Origin: Crocosphaera subtropica ATCC 51142
GTDB taxonomy: Bacteria; Cyanobacteriota; Cyanobacteriia; Cyanobacteriales; Microcystaceae
Direction: 5' to 3'
Assembly (NCBI RefSeq): GCF_000017845.1
Contig: NC_010546.1
Location: 4,860,001-4,892,000 of the forward strand
DNA length: 32,000 nt
In this document: positions 1,146 through 27,449 of the stretch, one piece after another
Layout: each line of letters begins with the position of its first letter
Numbering within the stretch: position 1 is the stretch's first letter
Position numbers and translations under genes: made by a program
The notes under the pieces: generated by a model
Told to the model about the DNA's origin: nothing
The model's database searches: none
What the model saw: only the letters and a program-made list of their open reading frames with translations

Positions 1146-2708
1146 TCAATTGATTTGATAAATATCGAATAAAGGTGTCTCTTCAAATAATTTATATTGA
1201 TGATTAAAATTCTGAAAATTTTTTGAGAGAGACTTTGTTTTCTTCAGTCTATAATCTCCTAATGATTCATATTTGGGATAAAGTAAATAAAAATCCTCTT
1301 CACATTCTGCGACAAAGGTTAAATCTTGTTGATTGACATATTGATTAATATATTCTTGGTTGCGAATGTTTCTATATCTTTCTTGGGGATGACAAACTGT
1401 TGATTGAGGAGGAATTTTTTCCAGTGCTTGACTAATATCAGAGGTATTAGGAACCCTGGGCATTCCGCCACGACTACTAATATAGTTAGCAAAATATTGA
1501 ATATTAATTAATAGGGAAATTGTGATACAGATGATAATAAAACCAATCAAGATTTTTTCCAACTTTTTAGAAAAATCAAGATAAGCTAAACTACACATAG
1601 TTAAGAAAATAGGAGCTAAGTAAATTAAAATTTTATAAAATACAGGATTATAAGTTTTTTCTAAATCTGTTGAAGAATAAGCCAATAAAAAGACTCCCCA
1701 AATAATGAATAAGCTATAAAAAATTGTTTTATTTCCTTTAAATTTGTAAATACTAATGACTAAAATTAGTAATAAAAAAATGATAGAAATTAGCAAGCTT
1801 TTTGAAGAATTACCAATAAAATAAACCCCTTGTCCTAAATCAATATAACCTGAAAAAATGGCTTGAAATCTTTGTAGTAAGGAAACACTATGACCCTCTT
1901 CTGTACTAGAGTCAAAAACCAGTTGAATAATTCGCTGTGTATTGATCCAGTTACGTCCAAATTCCCCTATCCAATAAGGTGTTAAAGTTACTAAGGTTGT
2001 AAGAATGGCCAGACCTGGTAAAATCCATCCTTTTTTCTTTTTTCTGTTTTGAAAAATATAGTAAATGATGCTAATAATAGATACAGCAGAAATCACATAG
2101 AGAGCCGAAAAGTGTAAATTAGTAATAATAGCAATCACTAAACCGTAAGTTATCCAGCATAATACCTCTAATTTAGGAGATAGTTTTTCATTGAGTTGGT
2201 AGTCATATAAAATCACTAAACAGAGTAAAAAAAACGGAATCGAAACCGGATTACCGCCTAAACTATCCCCGGTACTCATGACAATATTTCTAAAGAGCAA
2301 AATATACCAAAATCCCGATAATGCTGATAAGAAAAAACGTTTATCTTTTTCAACTCCTTCTAGTAATCTATAAATAGTAAAAGCCAACAAAGGAATAGTT
2401 AAAAAAGTAAACAAAGCATTGGATATGGCTTGAGCAGATAAGTCAGGAGTAAGTAAAGTACCAGGAAACACTAAATAGTAATAAAGGGGAGGTAAATAGA
2501 CATCTCCCACCAGTCCAGACCAAGCAGCAGGCCCAGGCCCTAAAGTTGGCCAAGAACCTTCCCAAATGGCCATTACACGATAAGCATCATTGATTTGATC
2601 TCCACTGTAATTCGTAAAGTTTAGGACAACAAAACTGAGAATAAAGACTCCATAAGCTAACGATAATATAAGTAATAATTTTCCAAAATTTCTTAGATTC
2701 TTTTTCAT
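1146..2708 (-). CDS. Polytopic membrane protein, possibly a GT-C fold (ArnT/PMT-like) glycosyltransferase
   Basis: 520-aa ORF with an ATG start and at least 10 hydrophobic segments. An early loop motif, YLPPLYYYLVFPG, resembles ArnT/PMT-type GT-C enzymes. The gene is visibly more AT-rich than its neighbours. The function is only a guess. Confidence 0.6.
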   Translation of the reverse strand: MKKNLRNFGKLLLILSLAYGVFILSFVVLNFTNYSGDQINDAYRVMAIWEGSWPTLGPGPAAWSGLVGDVYLPPLYYYLVFPGTLLTPDLSAQAISNALFTFLTIPLLAFTIYRLLEGVEKDKRFFLSALSGFWYILLFRNIVMSTGDSLGGNPVSIPFFLLCLVILYDYQLNEKLSPKLEVLCWITYGLVIAIITNLHFSALYVISAVSIISIIYYIFQNRKKKKGWILPGLAILTTLVTLTPYWIGEFGRNWINTQRIIQLVFDSSTEEGHSVSLLQRFQAIFSGYIDLGQGVYFIGNSSKSLLISIIFLLLILVISIYKFKGNKTIFYSLFIIWGVFLLAYSSTDLEKTYNPVFYKILIYLAPIFLTMCSLAYLDFSKKLEKILIGFIIICITISLLINIQYFANYISSRGGMPRVPNTSDISQALEKIPPQSTVCHPQERYRNIRNQEYINQYVNQQDLTFVAECEEDFYLLYPKYESLGDYRLKKTKSLSKNFQNFNHQYKLFEETPLFDIYQIN

Positions 2709-9766: not shown

Positions 9767-10417
9767 ATGGCAGATATCACAAGAGAAGAAATGCGCGATC
9801 GTCTAGGGAATATTGAACAAATTCGTGACTTATTATTTGGTAACACCATCCGAGAATACGATAAGCGTTTTCAACAGTGTGAGCAAAATATCGATAAATT
9901 AACCAGAGAATTCTCTTTATTTGAAACAGAAACCCGCGATCGCCTCGATCAACTTCAAGATTCTTTAACAACAGAAATTCGCTCAGTGGTCAATTCTTTA
10001 GAGAAAAAACTGAAATATTTGAGTATGACCACTCACGAACAAATTAACCAATTAGAAAAAGAACTTGATTCAACCGCTAAAAATAATTCTCGAAGTATTG
10101 AATCGTTGAATCAAACTATCACAGGACAAACGAACTTTTTAAGAAATGATCTGGTTCAAACAAGAGATAAATTAGAAAAATCAATGCAATCTTTACGAGA
10201 ACAGGTATTTGAAGCCATACAAAATGAATTAGTTGATCTTCAAGATAAAAAAGTTGCTCGAACTGATTTAGCTGATATTTTATTTGAACTTTGTGTCAAA
10301 ATCAAAGGGGATGAATTGGTTACAGATTTTCCCGAAAATACCGAACAGCATAGCCATACTGAATTATTTTTACCCGAACAACAAGCCAGCTTAGAATCAG
10401 AACACAATGACGAATAA
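9767..10417 (+). CDS. Coiled-coil protein of unknown function (first gene of the GTPase/c-di-GMP cluster)
   Basis: 216 aa with a GGAG 10 nt upstream of the ATG. Heptad-like, charge-rich sequence runs through most of the protein (LDQLQDSLTTEIRSVVNSLEKKLKYL..., QINQLEKELD..., RDKLEKSMQSLREQVFEAIQNELVDLQ). Confidence 0.75.
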   Translation: MADITREEMRDRLGNIEQIRDLLFGNTIREYDKRFQQCEQNIDKLTREFSLFETETRDRLDQLQDSLTTEIRSVVNSLEKKLKYLSMTTHEQINQLEKELDSTAKNNSRSIESLNQTITGQTNFLRNDLVQTRDKLEKSMQSLREQVFEAIQNELVDLQDKKVARTDLADILFELCVKIKGDELVTDFPENTEQHSHTELFLPEQQASLESEHNDE

Positions 10418-10443
10418 ATGAACATGATTGAGGATTGATAGAG

Positions 10444-10797
10444 ATGGCATTACCCGATAAAAACTCCTTTGACAATTCATCACTATCCCCTGATTCTGAT
10501 GAGAATTCTGTAAAAGCATTAGAAAATTTGTTAGGATTATTAACAGAATTAGAAATGCTAGATCAAGGAGATGAAGATGAAATAAGAGAAAATAAGATGA
10601 GTCAAAAATTAGAAGGAATTCAACCCAAAAATAGATACTCAAAATTGTCTCAATCTTCTCAAAAAGTACAGGTTCCAAGAAAAAGTAAGTATCACGAGTC
10701 TCTTGCTATAAAGATAAGTCAATTAGAGCAGAAAGTTAATCAATTAGAAAAAAAAAAGATGACCCCGAAGAAGTTATTAACCTTGTACTACCTTTAA
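10444..10797 (+). CDS. Small hypothetical protein with an acidic N-half and a basic coiled-coil C-half
   Basis: The ORF runs to TAA at 10795-10797, which overlaps the next ATG (TAATG). I prefer the ATG at 10444 (GAGG 12 nt upstream) over the TTG at 10435 in the track. An A10 tract lies at 10748-10757. Confidence 0.55.
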   Translation: MALPDKNSFDNSSLSPDSDENSVKALENLLGLLTELEMLDQGDEDEIRENKMSQKLEGIQPKNRYSKLSQSSQKVQVPRKSKYHESLAIKISQLEQKVNQLEKKKMTPKKLLTLYYL

Positions 10798-12548
10798 TGA
10801 CAGAATTGTTAGCTTCTCCTTCGATATCAGAAGAAACAATTAAGCAAGCTATTACCCCTGTTATTGATCAAATTATCAAAGAAAGATCCCAACAAGATCG
10901 CCTAAAAATGAGTCAAGCGATCGCCGATATTTTACCAACAGCCATTGCCCAAGAAATTGAAAATTCCCCTCAAGAAATAGCCAAAGCCATTGCCCCAGAA
11001 ATGGCTTTAGCCATACAAAACCAAATTCAACTGGATCGAGAGGCGATCGCCCAAACTTTAGGCCCAGAAATGGGACAAGCCATTAAACATCAAATCGAAG
11101 TAGAACGAGATGCCATGGTGGATGCACTTTATCCAGTGATTGGTAATACTATTTCTAAATATATGGTAGAACTCGCTAAATCTATTAATGATAAAGTAGA
11201 AAATGCACTTTCAATGGATGGGATTCGGCGAAAAATACAAGCCAAAATACAAGGGGTTTCTGAAGCAGAATTGATTTTACAAGAATCTATTAATTTTTCG
11301 GTTCAAGCTGTTTTATTAATCCATAAATCATCGGGTTTAATTATAAGTCAAGTCCAATCTGCATCTCAGCCAATAGAAGAAGTAGATTTATGGGCAGCAA
11401 TGTTAACTGCAATTCGTGATTTTGTTAATGATTGTGTTACGGTAGAAGGAAAAGTATCTGAGCTTCATGAAATTGAATACGATGATGCCAAAATTGTCTT
11501 AGAAGTCGCAGGGTATTGCTATTTAGCCGTTATTATAAAAGGAGAACCTTCCCAAACTTTTCTCAATCAAATTCGTCAAACATTAAGCCATATCATTCTT
11601 AAAAGCGGTCGAACCATTGAAGACTTTAATGGAGATCAATCTACCATCCCTCAATTTATTCACCCTCAACTCAAGGCATTAATTACCTTTTGTACTGACT
11701 CAAAAACCTCTAACCCTCCTATTACTTTAATTTTCATTTTCTCACTCATTATTATTAGTGTTGGGACAATTGTTTATCGTCATCAAATTACTAATTCCTG
11801 GGAAAAAGAAGTATTAAAGGCCTTAGATGCTGCGCCAGAATTATCGGTTTATCGTATTATTCCCGAAGTAAAAAGAAGGCAATTAATATTAAGAGGACGA
11901 GTCCCTAACCTGGCTTTAAAAAAACAAGCAGAAAATATCACTCATCAAGTTACCCCTCATTTAACCCTAGATAATCAAATTGTTGCAGTTAATATCCCCC
12001 CTGATGATCAAGCTATCGCAGGAGAAGTTCAACGGGTGACAGAAATTTTTAACCAAACTGAGGGAGTAGCTATTAATACGAATTATCAAGATCATAAGGT
12101 CACTATTACAGGATTCGTCCTCAATATTAGTCAAAGTAATCAACTTTCCCAAGCCTTTCAACAAATTCCAGGAATTGAGCAGGTAATTAGTACCTTTCAA
12201 ACCCAACCCTATTTAGAAACTCGTATTTATTTTGATCAAAATTCTAGTCAGTTTCAAACTGATAATATTAACCAAAAAGTTAAAACTATTGAAAAATTTT
12301 TAGCGGAACATCCTCGCATTCATCTTATAATAATAGGTCATAGTGATACAACAGGTTCAGTTGCTCAAAATGAATCACTAGCTAAGGCTAGGGCTAAAGC
12401 CGTAGAGCGAGTTTTACTGCAAAATAAGGTGGATTCTCGTCGCTTAAGGATTGCTGTGAGTCTTCAACCTCCGCCTGGTGTAACCAGCAATCAACCCTTA
12501 TGGTTAAGTCGGTGTGTGCGCTTTGAAATTTCGATTCCGCCCAATTAG
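10797..12548 (+). CDS. Bitopic envelope protein: cytoplasmic repeat region plus a Roadblock/LC7-like module, one TM helix, two BON-like domains and a C-terminal OmpA/MotB-like peptidoglycan-binding domain
   Basis: 583 aa. An approx 21-aa repeat occurs twice (AIAPEMALAIQNQIQLDREAI / TLGPEMGQAIKHQIEVERDAM). Residues approx 165-271 have a beta-alpha-beta-beta-alpha pattern (VLLIHKSSGLIISQV, DLWAAMLTAIRDFVNDC, AKIVLEVAGYCYLAVIIKG, FLNQIRQTLSHIILK). The TM helix is ITLIFIFSLIIISVGTIVY. The OmpA-like block is IYFDQNSSQF...IIIGHSDTTGSVAQNESLAKARAKAVERVLL. Confidence 0.85.
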   Translation: MTELLASPSISEETIKQAITPVIDQIIKERSQQDRLKMSQAIADILPTAIAQEIENSPQEIAKAIAPEMALAIQNQIQLDREAIAQTLGPEMGQAIKHQIEVERDAMVDALYPVIGNTISKYMVELAKSINDKVENALSMDGIRRKIQAKIQGVSEAELILQESINFSVQAVLLIHKSSGLIISQVQSASQPIEEVDLWAAMLTAIRDFVNDCVTVEGKVSELHEIEYDDAKIVLEVAGYCYLAVIIKGEPSQTFLNQIRQTLSHIILKSGRTIEDFNGDQSTIPQFIHPQLKALITFCTDSKTSNPPITLIFIFSLIIISVGTIVYRHQITNSWEKEVLKALDAAPELSVYRIIPEVKRRQLILRGRVPNLALKKQAENITHQVTPHLTLDNQIVAVNIPPDDQAIAGEVQRVTEIFNQTEGVAINTNYQDHKVTITGFVLNISQSNQLSQAFQQIPGIEQVISTFQTQPYLETRIYFDQNSSQFQTDNINQKVKTIEKFLAEHPRIHLIIIGHSDTTGSVAQNESLAKARAKAVERVLLQNKVDSRRLRIAVSLQPPPGVTSNQPLWLSRCVRFEISIPPN

Positions 12549-12570
12549 ATAAGTTAAGTATTTATAGTCT

Positions 12571-13116
12571 ATGATTAGTAAAAAAATCTGTCTGATTGGT
12601 GATTTTGGCGTAGGAAAAACTAGCTTAATTCGTCGTTTTATAGAACATCAATTTAGTGAAGAATATTTATCTACCATTGGAGTCAGCATTTCTCGTAAAT
12701 CAGTGATAGTATCCTCCTCCCATGAAAAACAAGACCCCGAAATAGTACAGTTATTAATTTGGGATATTGAAGGAAAAACAAAATTTCAAAAGATTTCTCC
12801 TAGTTACTTAAAATCTGCTCAGGGGATTATCATCGTGGCTGATTTTAGTCGTCAAGATACCATTGCTAATATCCCTTTTCATGTTGATTTAGTCCGTTCA
12901 ATCAATCCTGAAAGACTGACCCTAAGCATTGTTGTCAATAAAATTGATCTCGTTGCAGAACATTTGCCGACCCTTTTACTCCAACAGTATCAAATTCCTA
13001 ACCAGTTTCCCACCATCCCGATCTATCATACCTCTGCAAAAACAGGAGAAAATGTCGAAATCATGTTTCACCAATTAGCTCAGAGTATGATGGAAAAAAA
13101 CAACCAAAATTATTGA
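12571..13116 (+). CDS. Ras-superfamily small GTPase (Rab/Ras-like)
   Basis: G1 is GDFGVGKT and the switch I Thr lies in STIGV. G3 is WDIEGK, with Lys where Ras has Gln61. G4 is NKID and G5 is TSAK. Length is 181 aa. Confidence 0.9.
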   Translation: MISKKICLIGDFGVGKTSLIRRFIEHQFSEEYLSTIGVSISRKSVIVSSSHEKQDPEIVQLLIWDIEGKTKFQKISPSYLKSAQGIIIVADFSRQDTIANIPFHVDLVRSINPERLTLSIVVNKIDLVAEHLPTLLLQQYQIPNQFPTIPIYHTSAKTGENVEIMFHQLAQSMMEKNNQNY

Positions 13117-13213
13117 CGGATTTAAAAGTTCAATTAAAATAGCGTACATTCCCTTATTGTTGTTCCTTGACTCAAAAGATGCTGTTATTTGTTGTCTTCA
13201 TTTATTTATCTAT

Positions 13214-15142
13214 ATGGCACAAGAAAAGTCGATATCCCTCAACTCCCACTTAGTCTCTGTCGAAGCATTAATTAGTGAACATACTGAGAAACTTAATCAA
13301 GCCAAAGAACACTTACAACAACTTACCATTCACTTAGATCAATTAACCCATACTAATCTTCAACTATCAGAAGATATCTATCACTGCCAAAAGTTAGACG
13401 AAGAACTGAGACTAAATGAGCAAGCTTTACAGCTTAATCAAGAACGACTTCACAGTATTCTTGGCTCCATTGATGATGTGGTGTGGTCGATTGTTCCCCA
13501 AACTAGCCAAATTCTTTATCTTAATCATGCCACCGAGACGGTGTATGGTCGTCCCATTGCAGACTTTTTAGATAACTTAAATTTATGGCAAGAAATTATC
13601 TATGCAGACGATCAACAACGGGTTGAAGAGTCCCAACAACTTCTTTATAAAACAGGAATACAAGATATTGAATATCGCATCCTTTGGCCCAATGACGAAA
13701 TACATTGGATTAGGGTTCGGAGTCGTTTGATTAAAGATGATCAAGGAAACCCCATCCGTATCGATGGACTCACCACAGAAATCACCGAATATAAACAAAT
13801 TAAAGACCAACTACTTCATGATGCCTTGCACGATAATTTAACGGGCTTACCTAACCGAACCCTATTAATGGATCGCATTGAACAAGGGTTGAAACGGTGT
13901 CAACGGGATAAAAATAGACGGTTTGCTCTGCTGTTTTTGGATTTAGATGGATTTAAGCTCATTAATGATAGTTTAGGACATTTAACCGGGGATCAGCTAT
14001 TAATTATCCTCAGTCATCGGTTTAGTCGATGTTTGCGGGCCGAAGATACCTTATCCCGACTTGGAGGAGATGAATTCGTCATTTTGTTGGAGAATTTAAG
14101 CAATATTGATGAAGCGATCGCCATTGCTGATCGTATCCATAACATTCTCAAAGAACCGATTTTGTTACAAAACGAAGAAATTTTTATCAGTGTTAGTATT
14201 GGCATTGTTTTAGGCGGAGAACAATCCGTTTATAATAATCTCGATCAAGTGGCTGAATTGCTACGAGATGCAGATACTGCCATGTATCGAGCTAAGGCCA
14301 AAGGACCAGGAACCTCAAAAGTCTTTAAACCCTCGATGCACACCCATGTTATGAAACGGTTACAGGTGGCTAATGAGTTGCAAAGGGCCATTGAACGTCA
14401 AGAATTTATTGTTTATTATCAACCGATTATTTCCCTAGACAGCGATCGCATTGATGGGTTTGAAGCCTTAGTCCGTTGGCAACACCAAGAGAAAGGATTG
14501 ATTGCTCCTACGGATTTTATTCCCATCGCTGAAGAAACAGAAGCCATCTTAAAAATTGATCAATGGGTGTTGCGTCATGCTTGCACTCAATTAGGTCTTT
14601 GGCAACAACAATTCCCAAATCTAGGATCTTTGACCATGAGTGTTAATCTTTCTAGTAAACATTTAGCCCATCCCAGTTTAATTGAAGTATTAGATGAGAT
14701 TTTAGCCGAAACCGGGTTAGGAGGAAGCTCTTTAAAAGTAGAAATTACCGAAAGTTTTGTCATGGAACAAAGCAAAACATCCCTTGATATTCTAGAGCAA
14801 ATCAAACAGCGAAAAATTGAACTGTGTTTAGATGATTTTGGGACAGGTTATTCTTCGTTGAGTTATTTAGATTGCTTTTCTTTTAATATTTTGAAAATTG
14901 ATCGCTCTTTTATTAAACGGTTAGTCGCAGAACAAGATAGATGCGAAATTATTAAAGCGATTGTGGATTTAGCCATAACCTTAAATATGCAAGTGGTAGC
15001 GGAAGGGGTAGAAACTAATGTGCAACGGAAGAGATTAAAAGCTTTAAATTGTGGTTATGGTCAAGGTTATGGCTTTTTTCCCCCTTTAGATAGTCAAAAC
15101 ATTACCCGTCTTTTAGAGCAGCAAGATACACCCATCAACTAA
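13214..15142 (+). CDS. Coiled-coil/PAS-GGDEF-EAL c-di-GMP turnover protein
   Basis: A PAS-like region (LHSILGSIDDVVWS...IEYRILWPNDEIHWIRV) is present. An intact GGDEF motif (RLGGDEF) has an RxxD I-site 5 aa upstream (RAED). The EAL domain is intact (FEALVRWQH, DDFGTGYSSLSYL, EGVET). The first in-frame ATG is 13214, and the track start at 13157 is a TTG. Confidence 0.92.
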   Translation: MAQEKSISLNSHLVSVEALISEHTEKLNQAKEHLQQLTIHLDQLTHTNLQLSEDIYHCQKLDEELRLNEQALQLNQERLHSILGSIDDVVWSIVPQTSQILYLNHATETVYGRPIADFLDNLNLWQEIIYADDQQRVEESQQLLYKTGIQDIEYRILWPNDEIHWIRVRSRLIKDDQGNPIRIDGLTTEITEYKQIKDQLLHDALHDNLTGLPNRTLLMDRIEQGLKRCQRDKNRRFALLFLDLDGFKLINDSLGHLTGDQLLIILSHRFSRCLRAEDTLSRLGGDEFVILLENLSNIDEAIAIADRIHNILKEPILLQNEEIFISVSIGIVLGGEQSVYNNLDQVAELLRDADTAMYRAKAKGPGTSKVFKPSMHTHVMKRLQVANELQRAIERQEFIVYYQPIISLDSDRIDGFEALVRWQHQEKGLIAPTDFIPIAEETEAILKIDQWVLRHACTQLGLWQQQFPNLGSLTMSVNLSSKHLAHPSLIEVLDEILAETGLGGSSLKVEITESFVMEQSKTSLDILEQIKQRKIELCLDDFGTGYSSLSYLDCFSFNILKIDRSFIKRLVAEQDRCEIIKAIVDLAITLNMQVVAEGVETNVQRKRLKALNCGYGQGYGFFPPLDSQNITRLLEQQDTPIN

Positions 15143-15869: not shown

Positions 15870-16061
15870 GGTGATATGAAATCCGCTTAATCACTAAACG
15901 CAAGTATGAACGGTTGGCCACCAATGAAAACAAGTTAATCCACGAATGAATTCGGGCTGTTTCATTAACACCTTAAGGCGAGGAATTAAAACTTCTTCTA
16001 ATTCTTCTATTGTTTCAAAAGAACGATTCACAATTGGTTCGTTTGTCAAAGGCCACAGTCT

Positions 16062-16110
16062 GCTTGCTCCGTCCCTATGTCTGAGGGAACCTCAGACGGG
16101 GCGGTGCGCT
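16062..16110. repeat. 49-nt GC-rich hairpin mini-insertion inside the transposase gene
   Basis: The sequence is gcttgctccgtccctatgtctgagggaacctcagacggggcggtgcgct. A perfect 8-bp stem pairs gtctgagg with cctcagac around loop gaa, with an outer ccgtccc/ggggcgg stem. Deleting exactly these 49 nt joins ...PELQPAE to RLWPL... in frame. Confidence 0.75.
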
Positions 16111-16859
16111 TTCAGCTGGTTGTAATTCAGGAGAATAGGATGGTAAAAATTCTAGATGTATGCCTTCAGGAATTTTTAATGATTTACTCGTATGCCATCT
16201 CGCCCCATCCAAAACTAACAACACCTCCTTATTTTTTCCAATTTCAAAATGTTGAGCAAAATCAGCTAAAACTTGGCTAAATACTTCATGATTAACTAAT
16301 GGCATTAACCACCAATAAGTTTCTCCTGATTCTGGGTTCACGAAACCATAAAGCCAAACCCATTTATATTGCCACTTAATTTTTGCTGTTGGCACATCTG
16401 ACCAACTTACCCAGATTCTTCTATAAATTGGCTTTAATCCAATTCTATGTTCATCTTCTGTCCATAATTCTACTTTCTTCTCTGGATATTTTTCTTGTAT
16501 TTCTTTTACCCTAAAGGCGAGTTTTTTTTCCACTCTTCTTGCTCAATTAAATCGGCTTTTTGGTTTTCAGGACGGGGTATTCTTAAGCGGTATTCCATTG
16601 CTTTCAAATATTCCCAACCTCTTTGTGGCCAGACTCGGTATCCTAAAACTTCACTCATCCAATCTGCTACTTTTCTTCCATTCCATAATCCTCCATCTGG
16701 GGCTGGCCCTTGAATCACTTGTAGGAGTTGTGCTATCTGGACTTCATCTAATAATGGTTCTTTTCCTGGATTATTTTCTCTATGATCCCCTAATCCTTCA
16801 ATTCCTGAATGATTATAACGTCTGGCTAATTCTCTCACCCAGTACACTGTATATCCTGT

Positions 16860-16891
16860 GGCGGTCTCGCCCTTGGCGAGTGCGGCTGCAC
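16860..16891. repeat. 32-nt GC-rich hairpin mini-insertion inside the transposase gene
   Basis: The sequence is ggcggtctcgcccttggcgagtgcggctgcac. A 6-bp stem pairs ctcgcc with ggcgag around loop ctt. Deleting exactly these 32 nt joins ...KKTEEVA to TGYTVYWVRELA... in frame. Confidence 0.7.
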
Positions 16892-17102
16892 CGCTACTTC
16901 TTCTGTTTTTTTTCCACTAGCTAATAGCCAGATTATCTGATACTGACTTCTAGTTACTGGATTTTTTGCCTCTCGATATCTAGCTTGTAATTCAGATACA
17001 CTCAGGTGTTCGGCTATCTCAATTCTTTTTGGCATCTGGAGGGCGATCGCTTATTAACTCTACCCTCTTATTATACATTAACTTTTCAAACGGATTTCAT
17101 AT

Positions 17103-17312
17103 GAGTTCGGGATAAGGTTAAAGGCTAATTCTATCCTTGTCTGAACAACTGCCGTGGGACGACGGTTGGGTCACATCCGCAATAATGCTCTAATACCAAA
17201 TCCGCAAACAAAAACCGACTTATAGATTTCTCTCTCCCTACTCCTGCGCTCCCTGCTTTTACAAAAGAGGGTTATGGCAATCGGATTTAGTATAACTCCG
17301 AACTCCGAACTC
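17103..17312. repeat. Composite repeat bounded by GAGTTCGG ... CCGAACTC, with a diverged IS630-type MITE-like core at about 17197-17289
   Basis: The same end motifs occur at 961-1080, and CGAACTCAGGTT follows both. The inner segment is bounded by caaatccg (17197-17204) and cggattt (17282-17288). It contains ctccctgctt, resembling the MITE core. CTCCGAA is tandemly duplicated at 17296-17309. Confidence 0.4.
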
Positions 17313-17472
17313 AGGTTACTTACCTATGGGAAATTCTTATAAAAAGATAATATTTTATCAAAACACTGTATATGAGGGACAATCCTCTGTACGATGAGGA
17401 AAATTCCGTTTATTATATGAATAGAGAACCAGTATAAACACCTAAACAGAAAGTTGAGCTTAATTCTAAGCA

Positions 17473-18357
17473 ATGCCCAACGATACTTGCCATGTTTTAT
17501 TAATAGAAGATAAATTAGAGAATATTGAGTTATTACAAGATTTATTGTCTCGCAGTGAACACAGTTCTCTAGCTAAGGGTTTAACTTTTCCCATTACTTC
17601 CGCCACAACTTTAACCGAGAGTTTAAAATCCCTAGAAGCTCAGAAATTTGATGTAATTTTACTGGATTTAGATTTACCAGATAGTCAAGGATTGGATACC
17701 TTAATAAAACTAAGAGGAAAAGCAGCAAATATTCCCATTATTGTAGAAATGGATGAACAACGTGAAGGCAAAGTTGTCGAATCTTTTCAATTGGGTGCTG
17801 ATGGTTACTTACAAATAAAAACCCTTGATAGTAATCTCTTAATTCATGAGATTCGCTTAAGTATTGAACGGCAAAAATACCGTGCTAAAATCAATAAACA
17901 GCAGGAAGAAATGCGTCAGGCGCAAGAATTTGCCGATCTCGATGATCTCATTAAAGCGAGTCGGGAAACCAGTGTAACAGCACGATTATTTGGAGCTTAT
18001 CCTCTCAAAGAGAGCTTACCCGATGTCTTTATGGAATTAACAGAAGCGTATGGTAAGTTATTAGAATTATCTTTAGAACAACGAATGTTTAAAGTAGATT
18101 ATAATATCTCTGAGCAACTACGAATCTTAGGCGATAAATTAGGCTTTCTGAAAGCGAGTCCTAGAGATGCTATTGAAATTCACACAAAAGTTTTAAAGGA
18201 AAAAAGTCAAGATGTTACTGTGGCTAAAGCCCAAGCCTATGTTGCGGAAGGAAGACTGATGATTTTAGAATTAATGGGGTATTTAGCTTCATTTTATCGT
18301 AAATACTATATCGGTCTTAGTAACATTAACCTATCGATCCGAAAAGATTATCCGTGA
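17473..18357 (+). CDS. kaiA3: Chimeric KaiA-like protein (KaiA3 type): N-terminal response-regulator receiver domain plus C-terminal KaiA-like domain
   Basis: The receiver-like N-terminus includes HVLLIEDK and DVILLDLDLPDSQGLD. The C-terminus aligns by eye with the KaiC-binding domain of S. elongatus KaiA (AIEIHTKVLKE vs VVEIHMELMDE; EGRLMILELMGYLASFYRK vs DYRLTLIDVIAHLCEMYRR). The gene lies immediately upstream of kaiB and kaiC. Confidence 0.75.
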   Translation: MPNDTCHVLLIEDKLENIELLQDLLSRSEHSSLAKGLTFPITSATTLTESLKSLEAQKFDVILLDLDLPDSQGLDTLIKLRGKAANIPIIVEMDEQREGKVVESFQLGADGYLQIKTLDSNLLIHEIRLSIERQKYRAKINKQQEEMRQAQEFADLDDLIKASRETSVTARLFGAYPLKESLPDVFMELTEAYGKLLELSLEQRMFKVDYNISEQLRILGDKLGFLKASPRDAIEIHTKVLKEKSQDVTVAKAQAYVAEGRLMILELMGYLASFYRKYYIGLSNINLSIRKDYP

Positions 18358-18362
18358 ACTTT

Positions 18363-18647
18363 ATGAATAAATATCTACTCAAGCTATATATTACAGGGAA
18401 TACTGTCAACTCTCAAAGAGCGATCGCCAATCTCTTTCGTATCTGTCACGAAGAGTTACAAGATCAATATACCGTAGAAATTATCGATGTTCTCGAACAA
18501 CCGCAACAGGCCGAACGAGAAAAAATTTTAGTCACCCCCACCCTGATTAAACAGTTACCTCCACCCCTACAACGTATCATTGGAGATATGTCTAACACCC
18601 AAAAAGTTCTCTTAGGATTAGATTTAGTTTCCCAAAATAAAAATTAA
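18363..18647 (+). CDS. kaiB: Circadian clock protein KaiB (KaiB3-like by context)
   Basis: The sequence YLLKLYITGNTVNSQRAI...IIDVLEQPQQAEREKILVTPTLIK.LPPPLQRIIGDMS...KVLLGLDL carries the KaiB signature. An alternative GTG start at 18354 overlaps the kaiA3 stop (GTGA). Confidence 0.92.
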   Translation: MNKYLLKLYITGNTVNSQRAIANLFRICHEELQDQYTVEIIDVLEQPQQAEREKILVTPTLIKQLPPPLQRIIGDMSNTQKVLLGLDLVSQNKN

Positions 18648-18728
18648 CTAAGGTTTCTTGGCAATAGGAAAAGAAACAGGCAAAATAAACAATGAACAAT
18701 TCACCCTCTATTTCCTAAAAAAACACGA

Positions 18729-20243
18729 ATGACTCCAGAAAACGAACTAGACTATATTGAGAAATTAGAAACCGCTATTCCAGGGTTTGATTTTTTGTCA
18801 GAAGGTGGCCTCCCTAAAGGACGGGCTACTTTAGTCGCTGGAACTGCTGGAAGTTCTAAAACGGTTTTTGCTTGTCAGTTTTTAGCCGAAGGAATTAAAC
18901 GAGGGGAAAACGGTGTTTTTGTCACTTTTGAAGAACCACCCAAAGCCTTACGACGAAATATGCGAGGGTTTGGCTGGAATATTGCCCAATGGGAACTGGA
19001 ACGAAAATGGGCTTTTGTCGATGCCTCTCCCCAACCCGGAGAACCGATGATGGTAACGGGAGACTACGATCTCGGTGCGTTGATCGCCCGTATCGAGTTT
19101 GCTATCCGTAAGTATAACGCTCAACGAGTATCGATGGACTCTTTAGGGGCAATTTTTAGCCATTTAAGCGATAGCGCGCAAGTGAGAAGCGATCTCTTTC
19201 GTATGGCTTCGGCGTTACGAGAATTAGGGGTCACAGCCATTATGACGGCCGAAAGAACGGAAGAATATGGGGATATTAGTCGGTTTGGGGTAGAAGAATT
19301 TGTGGCCGATAATGTTGTTATTCTACGCAATGTCTTAGCGGATGAAAAGCGTCGTCGTACCATCGAAATTTTGAAATATCGGGGCACCGATCACCAAAAA
19401 GGCGAATATCCCTTTACCATTGTTCCCCGTCGTGGGGTGGTGATTATTCCTTTATCTGCCATTGAATTAGAACAAAAATCCTCTAATATTCGGATTACCT
19501 CCGGTAGTCACGAGTTAGATAGAATGTGCGGTGGTGGGTTTTTCCGAGATTCGATTATTTTAGTGTCGGGGGCCACCGGAACCGGCAAAACGTTAATGGT
19601 AACAGAATTCATGGCGGGTGGGGTGGTTAATGACGAACGATGTTTAATTTTTGCCTTTGAAGAAAGCCGAGAACAACTATTTCGTAATGCCACCGGTTGG
19701 GGGGTAGATTTTGAAGAAATGGAAAAACAAGGAAAATTAAAAGTGGTCTGTCGTTATCCAGAAACCACAGGGTTAGAAAATCACCTAATCAATATGAAGG
19801 AAACCATCGAAACCTTTAAACCGAATCGGGTGGCAGTAGACAGTTTATCAGCGTTAGAACGGGTTTCTACTTTAAAAGGATTTCGAGAGTTTATTATTGG
19901 TTTAACGTCTTTTATTAAACAGCAAGAAATCGGCGGTTTATTTACCTCAACTACTCCGACTTTATTGGGCGGATCTTCCATTACAGAGGCGCATATTTCT
20001 ACCATTACCGATTCTATTATTTTATTGCGTTACGTCGAAATGTATGGGGAAATGCGCCGTGGTATTACGGTTTTAAAAATGCGGGGTTCGATGCACGATA
20101 AAGATATTCGAGAATTTTCCATTGATAATAAAGGAATGCACATCGGTAAACCTTTCCGCAACGTAACCGGCATTTTATCCGGTTCGCCGATGTATACCGC
20201 ACAAAACGAAGTAGAACGATTAAGTAATTTATTTGAAGAGTAA
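18729..20243 (+). CDS. kaiC: Circadian clock ATPase/autokinase KaiC (KaiC3-like)
   Basis: The RecA-like domain is duplicated. The Walker A motifs are GTAGSSKT (CI) and GATGTGKT (CII). The catalytic EE pairs lie in TFEEPP and AFEESRE. The phosphosite block is TEAHISTITDSIILL. Length is 504 aa. Confidence 0.95.
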   Translation: MTPENELDYIEKLETAIPGFDFLSEGGLPKGRATLVAGTAGSSKTVFACQFLAEGIKRGENGVFVTFEEPPKALRRNMRGFGWNIAQWELERKWAFVDASPQPGEPMMVTGDYDLGALIARIEFAIRKYNAQRVSMDSLGAIFSHLSDSAQVRSDLFRMASALRELGVTAIMTAERTEEYGDISRFGVEEFVADNVVILRNVLADEKRRRTIEILKYRGTDHQKGEYPFTIVPRRGVVIIPLSAIELEQKSSNIRITSGSHELDRMCGGGFFRDSIILVSGATGTGKTLMVTEFMAGGVVNDERCLIFAFEESREQLFRNATGWGVDFEEMEKQGKLKVVCRYPETTGLENHLINMKETIETFKPNRVAVDSLSALERVSTLKGFREFIIGLTSFIKQQEIGGLFTSTTPTLLGGSSITEAHISTITDSIILLRYVEMYGEMRRGITVLKMRGSMHDKDIREFSIDNKGMHIGKPFRNVTGILSGSPMYTAQNEVERLSNLFEE

Positions 20244-20368
20244 AATCCCAAATCTTAATCATTCTCTTTTGTATTGAACTCCTGACTCCCTTAATTTTCC
20301 CTGTTTCCTATCTCAAAAGGCGTTATCCTAAAGAGTAAAGATGACGGTTAAGTGTAAGTGACCACCCT

Positions 20369-21553
20369 ATGTCAAAAATAGAAACTAGAACCGAACCCAT
20401 GGTATTGAACATGGGGCCTCATCATCCCTCAATGCACGGGGTATTACGTTTGATCGTCACGTTAGACGGGGAAGACGTAGTAGACTGTGAACCTGTAATC
20501 GGGTATCTTCATCGAGGGATGGAGAAAATTGCGGAAAATCGCACCAATATCATGTACGTTCCCTATGTGAGTCGTTGGGATTATGCGGCCGGAATGTTCA
20601 ATGAAGCGATTACCGTTAACGCCCCTGAACAATTAGCGGATATTGAAGTTCCCAAACGGGCCCAGTATATTCGGGTGATTATGTTGGAACTGAACCGCAT
20701 TGCTAACCATCTACTGTGGTTAGGCCCCTTTTTAGCAGACGTTGGCGCACAAACTCCCTTTTTCTACATTTTCCGTGAACGGGAAATGATTTACGATCTT
20801 TGGGAAGCAGCCTCCGGAATGCGTTTAATTAATAATAATTACTTCCGTGTGGGTGGGGTAGCGGTAGATTTACCCTACGGTTGGATCGATAAATGTGAAG
20901 ACTTCTGCGATGCGTTTGACCCCAAAGTAGATGAATATGAGAAGTTAATCACTAATAATCCCATTTTCCGCCGTCGTGTCGAAGGAGTAGGAACCATTAC
21001 CCGTGACGAAGCCATTAACTGGGGACTGTCTGGCCCAATGTTACGGGGTTCTGGGGTTCAATGGGATCTGCGAAAAGTAGACCATTACGAATGTTATGAT
21101 GACTTCGACTGGGAAGTTCAATGGGAAACCGCAGGAGACTGTTTTGCCCGTTATCTCGTTCGTATTCGGGAAATGCGCGAATCGGTTAAAATCATTCGTC
21201 AGGCGTTAAAAGGCATTCCAGGGGGTCCCTATGAAAACCTCGAAGCCAAACGCATGATGGAAGGTAAAAAGTCTGAATGGAATGATTTTGAATATCAATA
21301 TATTGCCAAAAAAGTCGCCCCTACTTTTAAAATTCCTGAAGGTGAACATTATGTTCGCATGGAAAGTGGAAAAGGAGAATTAGGGATCTTTATTGTGGGT
21401 AATAATGATGTCTTCCCCTGGCGTTGGAAAATTCGCGCCCCTGACTTTAATAATTTACAAATTCTGCCCCATCTCCTTAAAGGGGTAAAAGTTGCTGATA
21501 TTATGGCAATTTTGGGTAGTATTGATATTATTATGGGTTCTGTTGACCGTTAA
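20369..21553 (+). CDS. ndhH: NAD(P)H-quinone oxidoreductase (NDH-1) subunit H
   Basis: 394 aa. [25 protein letters not shown]...[15 protein letters not shown]...[14 protein letters not shown] matches the NdhH/NuoD family throughout. Confidence 0.97.
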
Positions 21554-26090: not shown

Positions 26091-27449
26091 TTACGATGAT
26101 AAATCACTGACTAAAGGGGTAGGATAAGCATTAAAATGAGCCTTTCTGAGAGCTTCAATCACTGACTGATCATTTTGTACCCAATAATCTTGTCCCAAGC
26201 GAATTAATTGGCGATTTTCTCCACTTCCGATAATAGCGATAACAGGAACTTTTGCCTTATTTTTATCTCCAGAATGTTCTTGAAGAATCCCTTTTAAACT
26301 ATGATATGAAACTTGATTTATTGCTTGTTCAAGACTTAAGTTTACCATCACCATTCTCACGGTTTCTACGGGTTCAGCATCTTCAACAATTAATTGAACT
26401 TTATCATCTCGATAATCAACTTTTCCCCATACAATAAGGCGAGAATCTTCAATTAAAACTTCTCGAATTCTTTTATAACTTTCAGGAAAACAAACCGCAT
26501 CTACTTGTGCTGAACCATCTTCTAAAACTAAGAAAGCCATTTGATCACCCTTTTTAGTGGTGTATTGCTTCACTTCGTTAACCATGATAACAGCACTGAC
26601 TTTTGTTTTTGCTTTTTGTTCTCCCATTTCATTTAAGTTAATAGGAGATAGAATTTTAGCAGCTTTTTTGACAGCCGTTAAAGGGTGTTCTGAAACATAA
26701 AAGCCGAGGTGTTCTTTTTCTAGTTTTAATTTATCTTGCAATGAATAATCTTCTACAGAAGATGCACTGGGAGCTTGTTTAAAATCCGTATTTGCTTCAG
26801 TTGATTCTGTTGTATTGCCACTCATTAAGTCAAAAATATTTAACTGTCCACTTTCTTTTTCTTTGGTTCGTTTTTGCGCCCAAGGAACCACTAATTCTAA
26901 ATCATTAATTAATTGTTTACGATTGGGGTAAATAGCATCAAATGCTCCAGCATAAATTAACGTTTCTAACGCTCTTTTATTCACAGAACGTAAATCAACA
27001 CGACAGCAAAAATCCGCCAGAGATTCAAACTGTCCTTCTGCTTCTTCCCGTGCTTTTAAAATGTTATCAATTGCTCCTTCACCTAAATTTCTAACTGCCG
27101 AAAAACCAAAGAGAATTTGTTTGCCTACAGGGGTAAAATCTTTTTGTGAGCGATTGATATCTGGGGGTAAAACATCAATGCCCATTTTTTGGCAGTTTTC
27201 CCGATATTTTTCGACCTTATCCTGATTGTCGCTACTGGCGGTTAATAAAGCCGTCATGTATTCAACGGGATAATTAGCTTTTAAATAAGCAGTTTGATAG
27301 GTGACATACGCATAAGCTGTTGAGTGAGATTTATTAAAGCAGTTAGAAGCAATTAAGCCATTGTGGAGTAAGAAATTATGCTCTTTTTCTACTCCAATAT
27401 CATAGACCTTTTGCACGCCTAACGACTGACGACCAATGATTTTAACCAT
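26091..27449 (-). CDS. dnaE: DNA polymerase III alpha subunit, C-terminal half, preceded by the split DnaE intein C-fragment
   Basis: It starts with the 36-aa IntC ([36 protein letters not shown]) followed by the extein [25 protein letters not shown]..., the conserved Pol III alpha region. An OB-fold-like C-terminus is also present. Confidence 0.95.
27342..27449 (-). other. Split intein C-fragment (IntC) of the DnaE trans-splicing intein
   Basis: The 36 codons end in ...HNGLIASN and are immediately followed by Cys+1 (CFN). They closely resemble the Npu/Ssp DnaE IntC (MIKIATRKYLGKQNVYDIGVERDHNFALKNGFIASN) as I remember it. Confidence 0.9.

Follow-up and report, generated by a model that had tools for sequence, protein, structure and literature searches.

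The 32,000-nucleotide stretch of the Crocosphaera subtropica ATCC 51142 genome analysed here (contig NC_010546.1, positions 4,860,001 to 4,892,000; hereafter the window) carries, at window positions 17473-20243, three open reading frames (ORFs) on the same strand, whose listing and translations give a chimera of a receiver and a KaiA-like domain, a KaiB, and a KaiC. We read this locus as a kaiA3-kaiB3-kaiC3 operon that encodes a second post-translational Kai oscillator beside the canonical kaiAB1C1 clock, with a probability of roughly 0.93. The system is not new: the 294-residue chimera is identical (100%) to WP_009543244.1, which has been catalogued by reciprocal BLAST as a KaiA3 ortholog from Cyanothece sp. 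ATCC 51142, the former name of the strain (48.6% identity, E=1.6e-88; Kobler 2024 Dataset S1, PMC11372060), and a self-sustained rhythm of KaiC phosphorylation has been obtained in vitro from WP_009543244.1, KaiB-Cy2, and KaiC-Cy2 (Mukaiyama 2025, PMC12081879); the ortholog listing and the reconstitution both concern this very strain.

A preliminary description of the window, made from its sequence, had recognized three co-directional genes with a first product of 294 residues and had equated their architecture with the KaiA3 (Sll0485)/KaiB3/KaiC3 system of Synechocystis; the ORFs lie where it placed them, and the equation is upheld by full-length homology to Sll0485, by the published ortholog listing, and by the adjacency of kaiB and kaiC. 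The conditions that it had named as refuting were examined in turn, and not one of them tells against the reading. Its remark that this architecture has seen little study elsewhere no longer holds for ATCC 51142, given the published reconstitution, which also supplies the in vitro test of KaiC phosphorylation that it had proposed. The canonical operon for which it had suggested searching the genome is known from the literature (cce_0424, cce_0423, cce_0422).

Crocosphaera/Cyanothece 51142 is a model for the temporal separation of photosynthesis and nitrogen fixation, and the presence of two Kai oscillators, itself already published, matters for that physiology. The present analysis adds a corrected kaiB start, a strain-specific IS630 insertion, and a family-wide census of receiver residues; the erosion of these residues in cyanobacterial KaiA3 is the sole mildly new angle.

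Organization of the locus

The elements of the locus, all on the plus strand, are as follows.

17320..17472, plus strand: region 5' of kaiA3 kept among Crocosphaera relatives (blastn), presumed to hold the native promoter and the 5' untranslated region (UTR)
17473..18357, plus strand: kaiA3, the 294-residue receiver/KaiA-like chimera WP_009543244.1 (ORF; sequence identity to this accession; 49% identity to Sll0485)
17494..17853, plus strand: receiver (REC) domain, residues 8-127 of KaiA3 (Pfam Response_reg, AlphaFold model, Foldseek)
18019..18324, plus strand: KaiA-like four-helix C-terminal domain, residues 183-284 of KaiA3 (models, Foldseek, PF07688, PDB profile, conservation)
18363..18647, plus strand: kaiB, KaiB3-type, annotated kaiB2 (cce_4715), 94 residues from ATG (Pfam KaiB; PDB KaiB matches; start kept in relatives)
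18729..20243, plus strand: kaiC, KaiC3-type of group III, annotated kaiC2 (cce_4716), 504 residues, two RecA-like domains, S424/T425 (NCBIfam, structure alignments, motifs)

The kaiA3 gene is the one immediately 5' of cce_4715, and kaiC follows kaiB after a spacer of 81 nt, the distance given in the preliminary description. The same description had kaiA3 end in overlap with a possible GTG start of kaiB. This overlap exists, in that the GTG at 18354 overlaps the TGA stop of kaiA3 and would give a protein of 97 residues (18354-18647); the ATG at 18363 is nevertheless most likely the start, because the Crocosphaera relatives, in which the ATG lies 6 nt past the kaiA3 stop, and an independent gene call, made where this sequence occurs in a second assembly, both give a KaiB of 94 residues. 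In more distant relatives, kaiA3 and kaiB overlap by 4-8 nt.

The KaiA-like domain of KaiA3

Over its length, the chimera aligns collinearly with Sll0485 (49% identity over 286 residues, BLASTP E=1e-92), the protein for which KaiA3 has been defined as a receiver/KaiA chimera (Kobler 2024, PMC11372060). Its C-terminal part was compared with KaiA by three methods. In Pfam, the KaiA C-terminal domain PF07688 is matched by residues 206-277 (E=0.013, 16.2 bits against a gathering score of 22.2), and scores of 16.2-17.9 bits to PF07688 lie below that threshold for KaiA. Of 27 family members searched one by one, 22 match PF07688 (best E=2.4e-4) and 10 match the structurally related RsbU_N. In profile searches over all PDB sequences and in Foldseek searches against the PDB, the full-length protein returns results dominated by receiver domains, and both were rerun with the C-terminal part alone. 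With the C-terminal 145 residues of the 27 family members as the query profile, the top three matches are the KaiA C-domains 1q6a, 5jwr_E, and 1v2z, at E ~0.1.

The AlphaFold model of this part (predicted local distance difference test, pLDDT, 83; predicted template-modelling score, pTM, 0.74; averages of 88-98 in 10-residue blocks across the bundle) contains four helices, formed by residues 183-206, 212-225, 230-244, and 250-284. Foldseek places KaiA C-domains at ranks 1-7 and 9 for it (probability 0.96-1.0, E 0.05-0.3), with root-mean-square deviations of 2.6-4.1 Å over ~100 columns in the better-fitting matches; the target-normalised TM score is 0.51-0.73 for isolated KaiA C-domain chains and 0.32 for the full-length KaiA 1r8j_B. 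KaiA ranks first by all three methods, and together with the published biochemistry these signals support a KaiA-like C-terminal domain in KaiA3, as had been surmised from a resemblance to the KaiC-binding domain of KaiA; the proposed check of the C-terminal residues by model, structure comparison, and profile thus comes out in favor of KaiA, weakly in each instance. The domain is also where conservation is concentrated, with 30 positions conserved to at least 95% in residues 150-294 of the family alignment and 3 in residues 1-149. The protein works like KaiA, yet it is not a canonical KaiA, because its scores fall short of the PF07688 gathering score and because it retains an acceptor Asp in its receiver.

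The database annotations of the protein suggest another identity, that of an ordinary transcription regulator of the NarL type next to a kaiB-kaiC pair that would then form a KaiA-independent hourglass. It is annotated as 'two-component response regulator, NarL subfamily' or 'response regulator transcription factor', and NarL is in fact its best NCBIfam match, yet the score is only 46 bits where the cut-off stands at 250. Neither Pfam nor NCBIfam finds a helix-turn-helix (HTH) or GerE DNA-binding domain anywhere in the 294 residues, and on this ground the transcription factor reading was rejected; furthermore, the C-terminal part of the protein matches KaiA and RsbU_N and is its most conserved part, and WP_009543244.1 served as the KaiA component in the oscillating mixture (PMC12081879). 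We consider this identity very improbable.

KaiB and KaiC

The product of the second gene is a KaiB by Pfam (E=2e-30) and by NCBIfam, where it scores 110.4 bits against the PRK09301 cut-off of 110, and it reaches 95-103 bits to KaiB1 structures in the PDB. It contains the segments EKILVTPTL and LLGLDLV and retains the residues tied to fold switching, namely K, G, and D (Schmelling 2017); its gene context would make it a KaiB of the KaiB3 subtype.

The KaiC is a double-domain protein (Pfam E=1e-120; NCBIfam PRK09302, 752 bits) in which all the motifs listed in the preliminary description can be located: the P-loops GTAGSSKT of CI (residues 38-45) and GATGTGKT of CII (residues 281-288), the catalytic EE pairs at 68-69 and 311-312, and the phosphosite block T419-x-x-x-I-S424-T425. 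It had been set apart from KaiC1 by its CI P-loop and its length of 504 residues. The P-loop is indeed a real clade signature, since 76 of its 80 nearest KaiC relatives share GTAGS[A/S/G]KT while the aligned KaiC1 structures have GTSGTGKT. In bit scores, the protein reaches 740 to KaiC-beta, the reconstructed ancestor of groups I-III, ~602 to KaiC1 structures, and ~301 to Rhodobacter KaiC. In the published KaiC tree, KaiC-Cy2 of Cyanothece sp. ATCC 51142 shares group III with Synechocystis KaiC3 (KaiC-Sy3) (Mukaiyama 2025, PMC12081879), in agreement with the KaiC3 lineage originally proposed. That the window KaiC is not of the KaiC1 type is therefore supported by scores that favor the ancestor over KaiC1, by the context of kaiA3 and kaiB, and by the published placement in group III.

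Proposed operation of the oscillator and weight of the evidence

In the oscillator envisaged here, the 504-residue KaiC would assemble into a double-ring hexamer capable of autophosphorylation and autodephosphorylation at S424/T425. The four-helix C-domain of the chimera, probably dimeric, would bind KaiC and promote its autophosphorylation; KaiB would then bind phosphorylated KaiC, draw the chimera into a large KaiA3-KaiB3-KaiC3 complex, and sequester it there, leading to dephosphorylation. The outcome would be a phosphorylation cycle of ~24 h, for which the N-terminal receiver, presumably an input module, should be dispensable. For the Synechocystis orthologs, the interaction of KaiA3 with KaiC3, the stimulation of phosphorylation, the antagonism of KaiB3, a ternary complex, and specificity relative to KaiA1/KaiB1 have been described (Kobler 2024, PMC11372060), and it is by analogy with these that the separate interaction steps are proposed for ATCC 51142.

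Several points weigh against this interpretation. The three signals for the KaiA-like domain are weak and individually sub-significant, lying below the Pfam gathering score, at E ~0.1 in the PDB profile search, and at E 0.05-0.3 in Foldseek. The orthology of the window KaiC to Synechocystis KaiC3 (Slr1942) is suggested by the published tree and by gene context, and the equation of KaiB-Cy2 (ID 086) with the product of the window kaiB is made probable by its name and by its pairing with KaiC-Cy2. Co-transcription of kaiA3, kaiB, and kaiC as one operon is what the gene spacing would lead one to expect; in consensus scans of 16900-20450, promoter and terminator sites were no more frequent than on average in shuffled sequence. 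The literature, finally, yielded no in vivo data for the kaiA3B3C3 genes of ATCC 51142.

The receiver domain of KaiA3

The N-terminal receiver comprises residues 8-127 (Pfam Response_reg, E=4.8e-14), and its AlphaFold model has a beta/alpha fold for which Foldseek returns REC structures at E ~1e-7. The acceptor Asp that had been noted in it is present as D65, along with E12 and D13, the three residues forming the acidic pocket and phosphoacceptor site. A deviation from the usual Thr and Lys had also been noted: Met93 in fact occupies the position of the family-consensus Thr, and Ile115 that of the canonical Lys, which is followed by Lys116 one residue on. Members of the Crocosphaera clade share this combination (E12, D13, D65, Met93, Ile115/Lys116).

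In the wider family, 107 of all 171 aligned sequences have Asp65, and in ~37% another residue (S, N, G, or E) takes its place. Scored at four positions (D/E13, D65, T/S93, and K115), the receiver is canonical throughout in 24 of 119 close protein clusters, in 7 of 32 cyanobacterial species representatives, and in 7 of 8 non-cyanobacterial homologs of the REC type; roughly three in four KaiA3 receivers of cyanobacteria thus have incomplete catalytic residues, whereas the non-cyanobacterial ones are mostly complete. The study that defined KaiA3 mentions loss of the Asp solely for Pleurocapsa and Microcystis and leaves the Thr and Lys positions undiscussed (Kobler 2024, PMC11372060). The core Kai cycle can do without phosphorylation of the receiver, because the recombinant proteins oscillate without a phosphodonor (Mukaiyama 2025, PMC12081879). 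Taken across the family, the census suggests that the phosphorylation machinery of the receiver may be dispensable and eroding in cyanobacteria, with the KaiA-like domain held under strong constraint.

These residues bear on two accounts of what the receiver does, the first of which is compatible with the oscillator reading. It may be a working phosphoacceptor, in which a histidine kinase phosphorylates Asp65 and so tunes KaiA3 for entrainment input; such a role has been proposed for Synechocystis KaiA3 (Kobler 2024, PMC11372060), and it would agree with the retention of E12, D13, and D65 in the Crocosphaera clade and with the full catalytic set of 7 of the 8 non-cyanobacterial homologs. The substitutions to Met93 and Ile115, the loss of Asp65 in over a third of the wider family, the small share of clusters and of cyanobacterial representatives with all four positions complete, and the activity of the recombinant protein in a mixture that contains no phosphodonor all speak against it, and we hold it to be possible but somewhat doubtful.

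Alternatively, the receiver may be a pseudo-receiver in the making, which is no longer phosphorylated and acts through protein or ligand contacts in the manner of the pseudo-receiver (PsR) domain of canonical KaiA. The latter offers a precedent, being a receiver fold without the Asp (PMC11372060 Introduction), and both the incomplete catalytic residues of the cyanobacterial family and the concentration of selection on the C-domain (30 against 3 strongly conserved positions) point the same way; against this stand the conservation of the acidic pocket and Asp65 in the Crocosphaera clade, which suggests continued constraint, and Lys116, which could stand in for the missing Lys115. Its chances are only a little short of even. 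The evolutionary form of this proposal, by which the receiver is decaying into a pseudo-receiver in the Crocosphaera clade and most cyanobacteria while the non-cyanobacterial homologs are complete or bear PAS domains, is a tentative one; if true, the origin of the PsR domain in canonical KaiA would have a living intermediate in KaiA3, and Crocosphaera would receive its clock input by a route other than Asp phosphorylation.

Relatives of the locus

A KaiC search of genome contigs, with one genome per species, yielded 80 loci, all of them close relatives of the KaiC3 type with no less than 71% identity; the source genome and Synechocystis are not represented among them. They come from Cyanobacteria, Anaerolineae/Chloroflexota, Latescibacterota, Nitrospinota, Geobacteraceae, and others, and in 52 of them a kaiA3-like gene and kaiB lie directly upstream of kaiC. 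In Microcystis, Pannus, and Geminocystis, kaiC stands alone. This matches the literature, according to which kaiA3 is upstream of kaiB3 in all analysed cyanobacterial genomes and kaiC3 is usually next, with Synechocystis and Microcystis NIES-843 as exceptions (Kobler 2024, PMC11372060).

In genomes of Chloroflexota/Anaerolineae, Geobacteraceae, and related groups, PAS domains are joined to the KaiA3-like C-domain, either in place of the receiver or in addition to it. At loci of this type (L066, L068, L071, L073, L074, L075, L077, and L080), the gene upstream of kaiB-kaiC shows the architectures PAS-KaiA-like, 3xPAS-KaiA-like, and REC-PAS-PAS-KaiA-like. Such variety suggests that input modules are swappable on a conserved KaiA-like output. 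One of these loci, L074 from a metagenome-assembled genome (MAG) of Anaerolineae, has two kaiB genes, one of them upstream of kaiC beside a short receiver gene and the second downstream of kaiC, paired with a REC-PAS-KaiA-like gene. Lusitaniella coriacea has a 199-residue fusion of a receiver and KaiB directly 5' of a kaiC of the KaiC3 type (L061:3347-3946), and no KaiA3-like gene was detected there within 4 kb of flanking sequence.

The IS630 insertion upstream of kaiA3

In six Crocosphaera relatives, the GGDEF/EAL gene, the pseudouridine synthase gene, and kaiA3 follow one another in this order, with a spacer of ~120-170 nt before kaiA3. In the window, an insertion of ~1,460 bases (15861 to ~17320) lies between the pseudouridine synthase gene and kaiA3; the whole of it is absent from the six relatives by blastn, and it is thus strain-specific. 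It contains the IS630 copy reported in the preliminary description, an element of the IS630 family with inverted repeats at 15874-15888 and 17088-17102 and a transposase (HTH_33/HTH_32 and DDE_3) split over three minus-strand ORFs (16075-17035); to this are added ~220 nt without assigned identity (17103-17320), which reach as far as the conserved stretch upstream of kaiA3. From window 17320-17430 onward, the relatives align at 75-88% identity, and the ~150 nt of conserved sequence before kaiA3, the presumed native promoter and 5' UTR, have been left intact by the insertion.

Other features of the window

On the minus strand, 26091-27449 encodes the C-terminal half of DNA polymerase III alpha (HHH_6 and OB fold), the start of which we take to be a split-intein C-fragment with its junction before CFNK; split dnaE genes occur in Synechocystis and other cyanobacteria. 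A co-directional run on the plus strand (9767-13116), just upstream of a PAS-GGDEF-EAL protein (13157-15142), consists of two ORFs with no Pfam match, a 583-residue BON/OmpA-domain protein, and a 181-residue Ras/Roc-like small GTPase. An ORF of 520 residues (1146-2708, minus strand) lies in a stretch of 30% G+C and is without a Pfam match at E<=1e-4. Scans for Rfam families and tRNA genes across the 32,000 nucleotides of the window gave no matches.

Comparison with known systems

The closest counterpart is the system of Synechocystis PCC 6803, formed by KaiA3 (Sll0485), KaiB3 (Sll0486), and KaiC3 (Slr1942). The two share the REC and KaiA-like chimera, the adjacency of kaiA3 and kaiB3, the phosphosite block of KaiC (S424/T425 here, S423/T424 there), and the coexistence with a canonical kaiAB1C1 operon; for Synechocystis, it has been shown that KaiA and KaiB1 cannot substitute in the system (Kobler 2024, PMC11372060). 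They differ in that kaiC3 is located elsewhere in the Synechocystis genome, whereas the three genes are contiguous in Crocosphaera; in that Sll0485 has Ser at the Thr position, where Crocosphaera has Met93, together with Ile115; and in the IS630 element upstream of the Crocosphaera genes.

With the canonical KaiABC of Synechococcus elongatus PCC 7942 and Thermosynechococcus, the locus has in common the three-component logic, the A-B-C gene order, the catalytic motifs of KaiC, the fold of the KaiA C-domain, and a KaiB within 95-103 bits of KaiB1 structures. In contrast to the PsR domain of canonical KaiA, however, the N-terminal domain of Crocosphaera KaiA3 retains the acceptor Asp, and the KaiA homolog WP_009543244.1 is ~17% identical to S. 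elongatus KaiA (Mukaiyama 2025, PMC12081879); the window KaiC has 504 residues instead of 519, a different CI P-loop, and a C-terminal tail that is both shorter and different.

The KaiBC hourglass of Rhodobacter sphaeroides and Rhodopseudomonas, which is of the KaiC2 type, resembles the locus as a KaiB-KaiC pair distinct from the canonical clock. Its KaiC is nevertheless distant (~301 bits), and the window KaiC, unlike it, lacks an extended C-terminus, has its own partner of the KaiA-like type, and reportedly sustains its own rhythm. The N-terminal domain of Bacillus subtilis RsbU, finally, is a weak echo of the helical bundle of KaiA3, seen in the RsbU_N matches of 10 of the 27 family members and in 2j6z, which Foldseek lists at rank 50; KaiA outscores it in every case, and its gene context, that of a partner-switching phosphatase, is unrelated.

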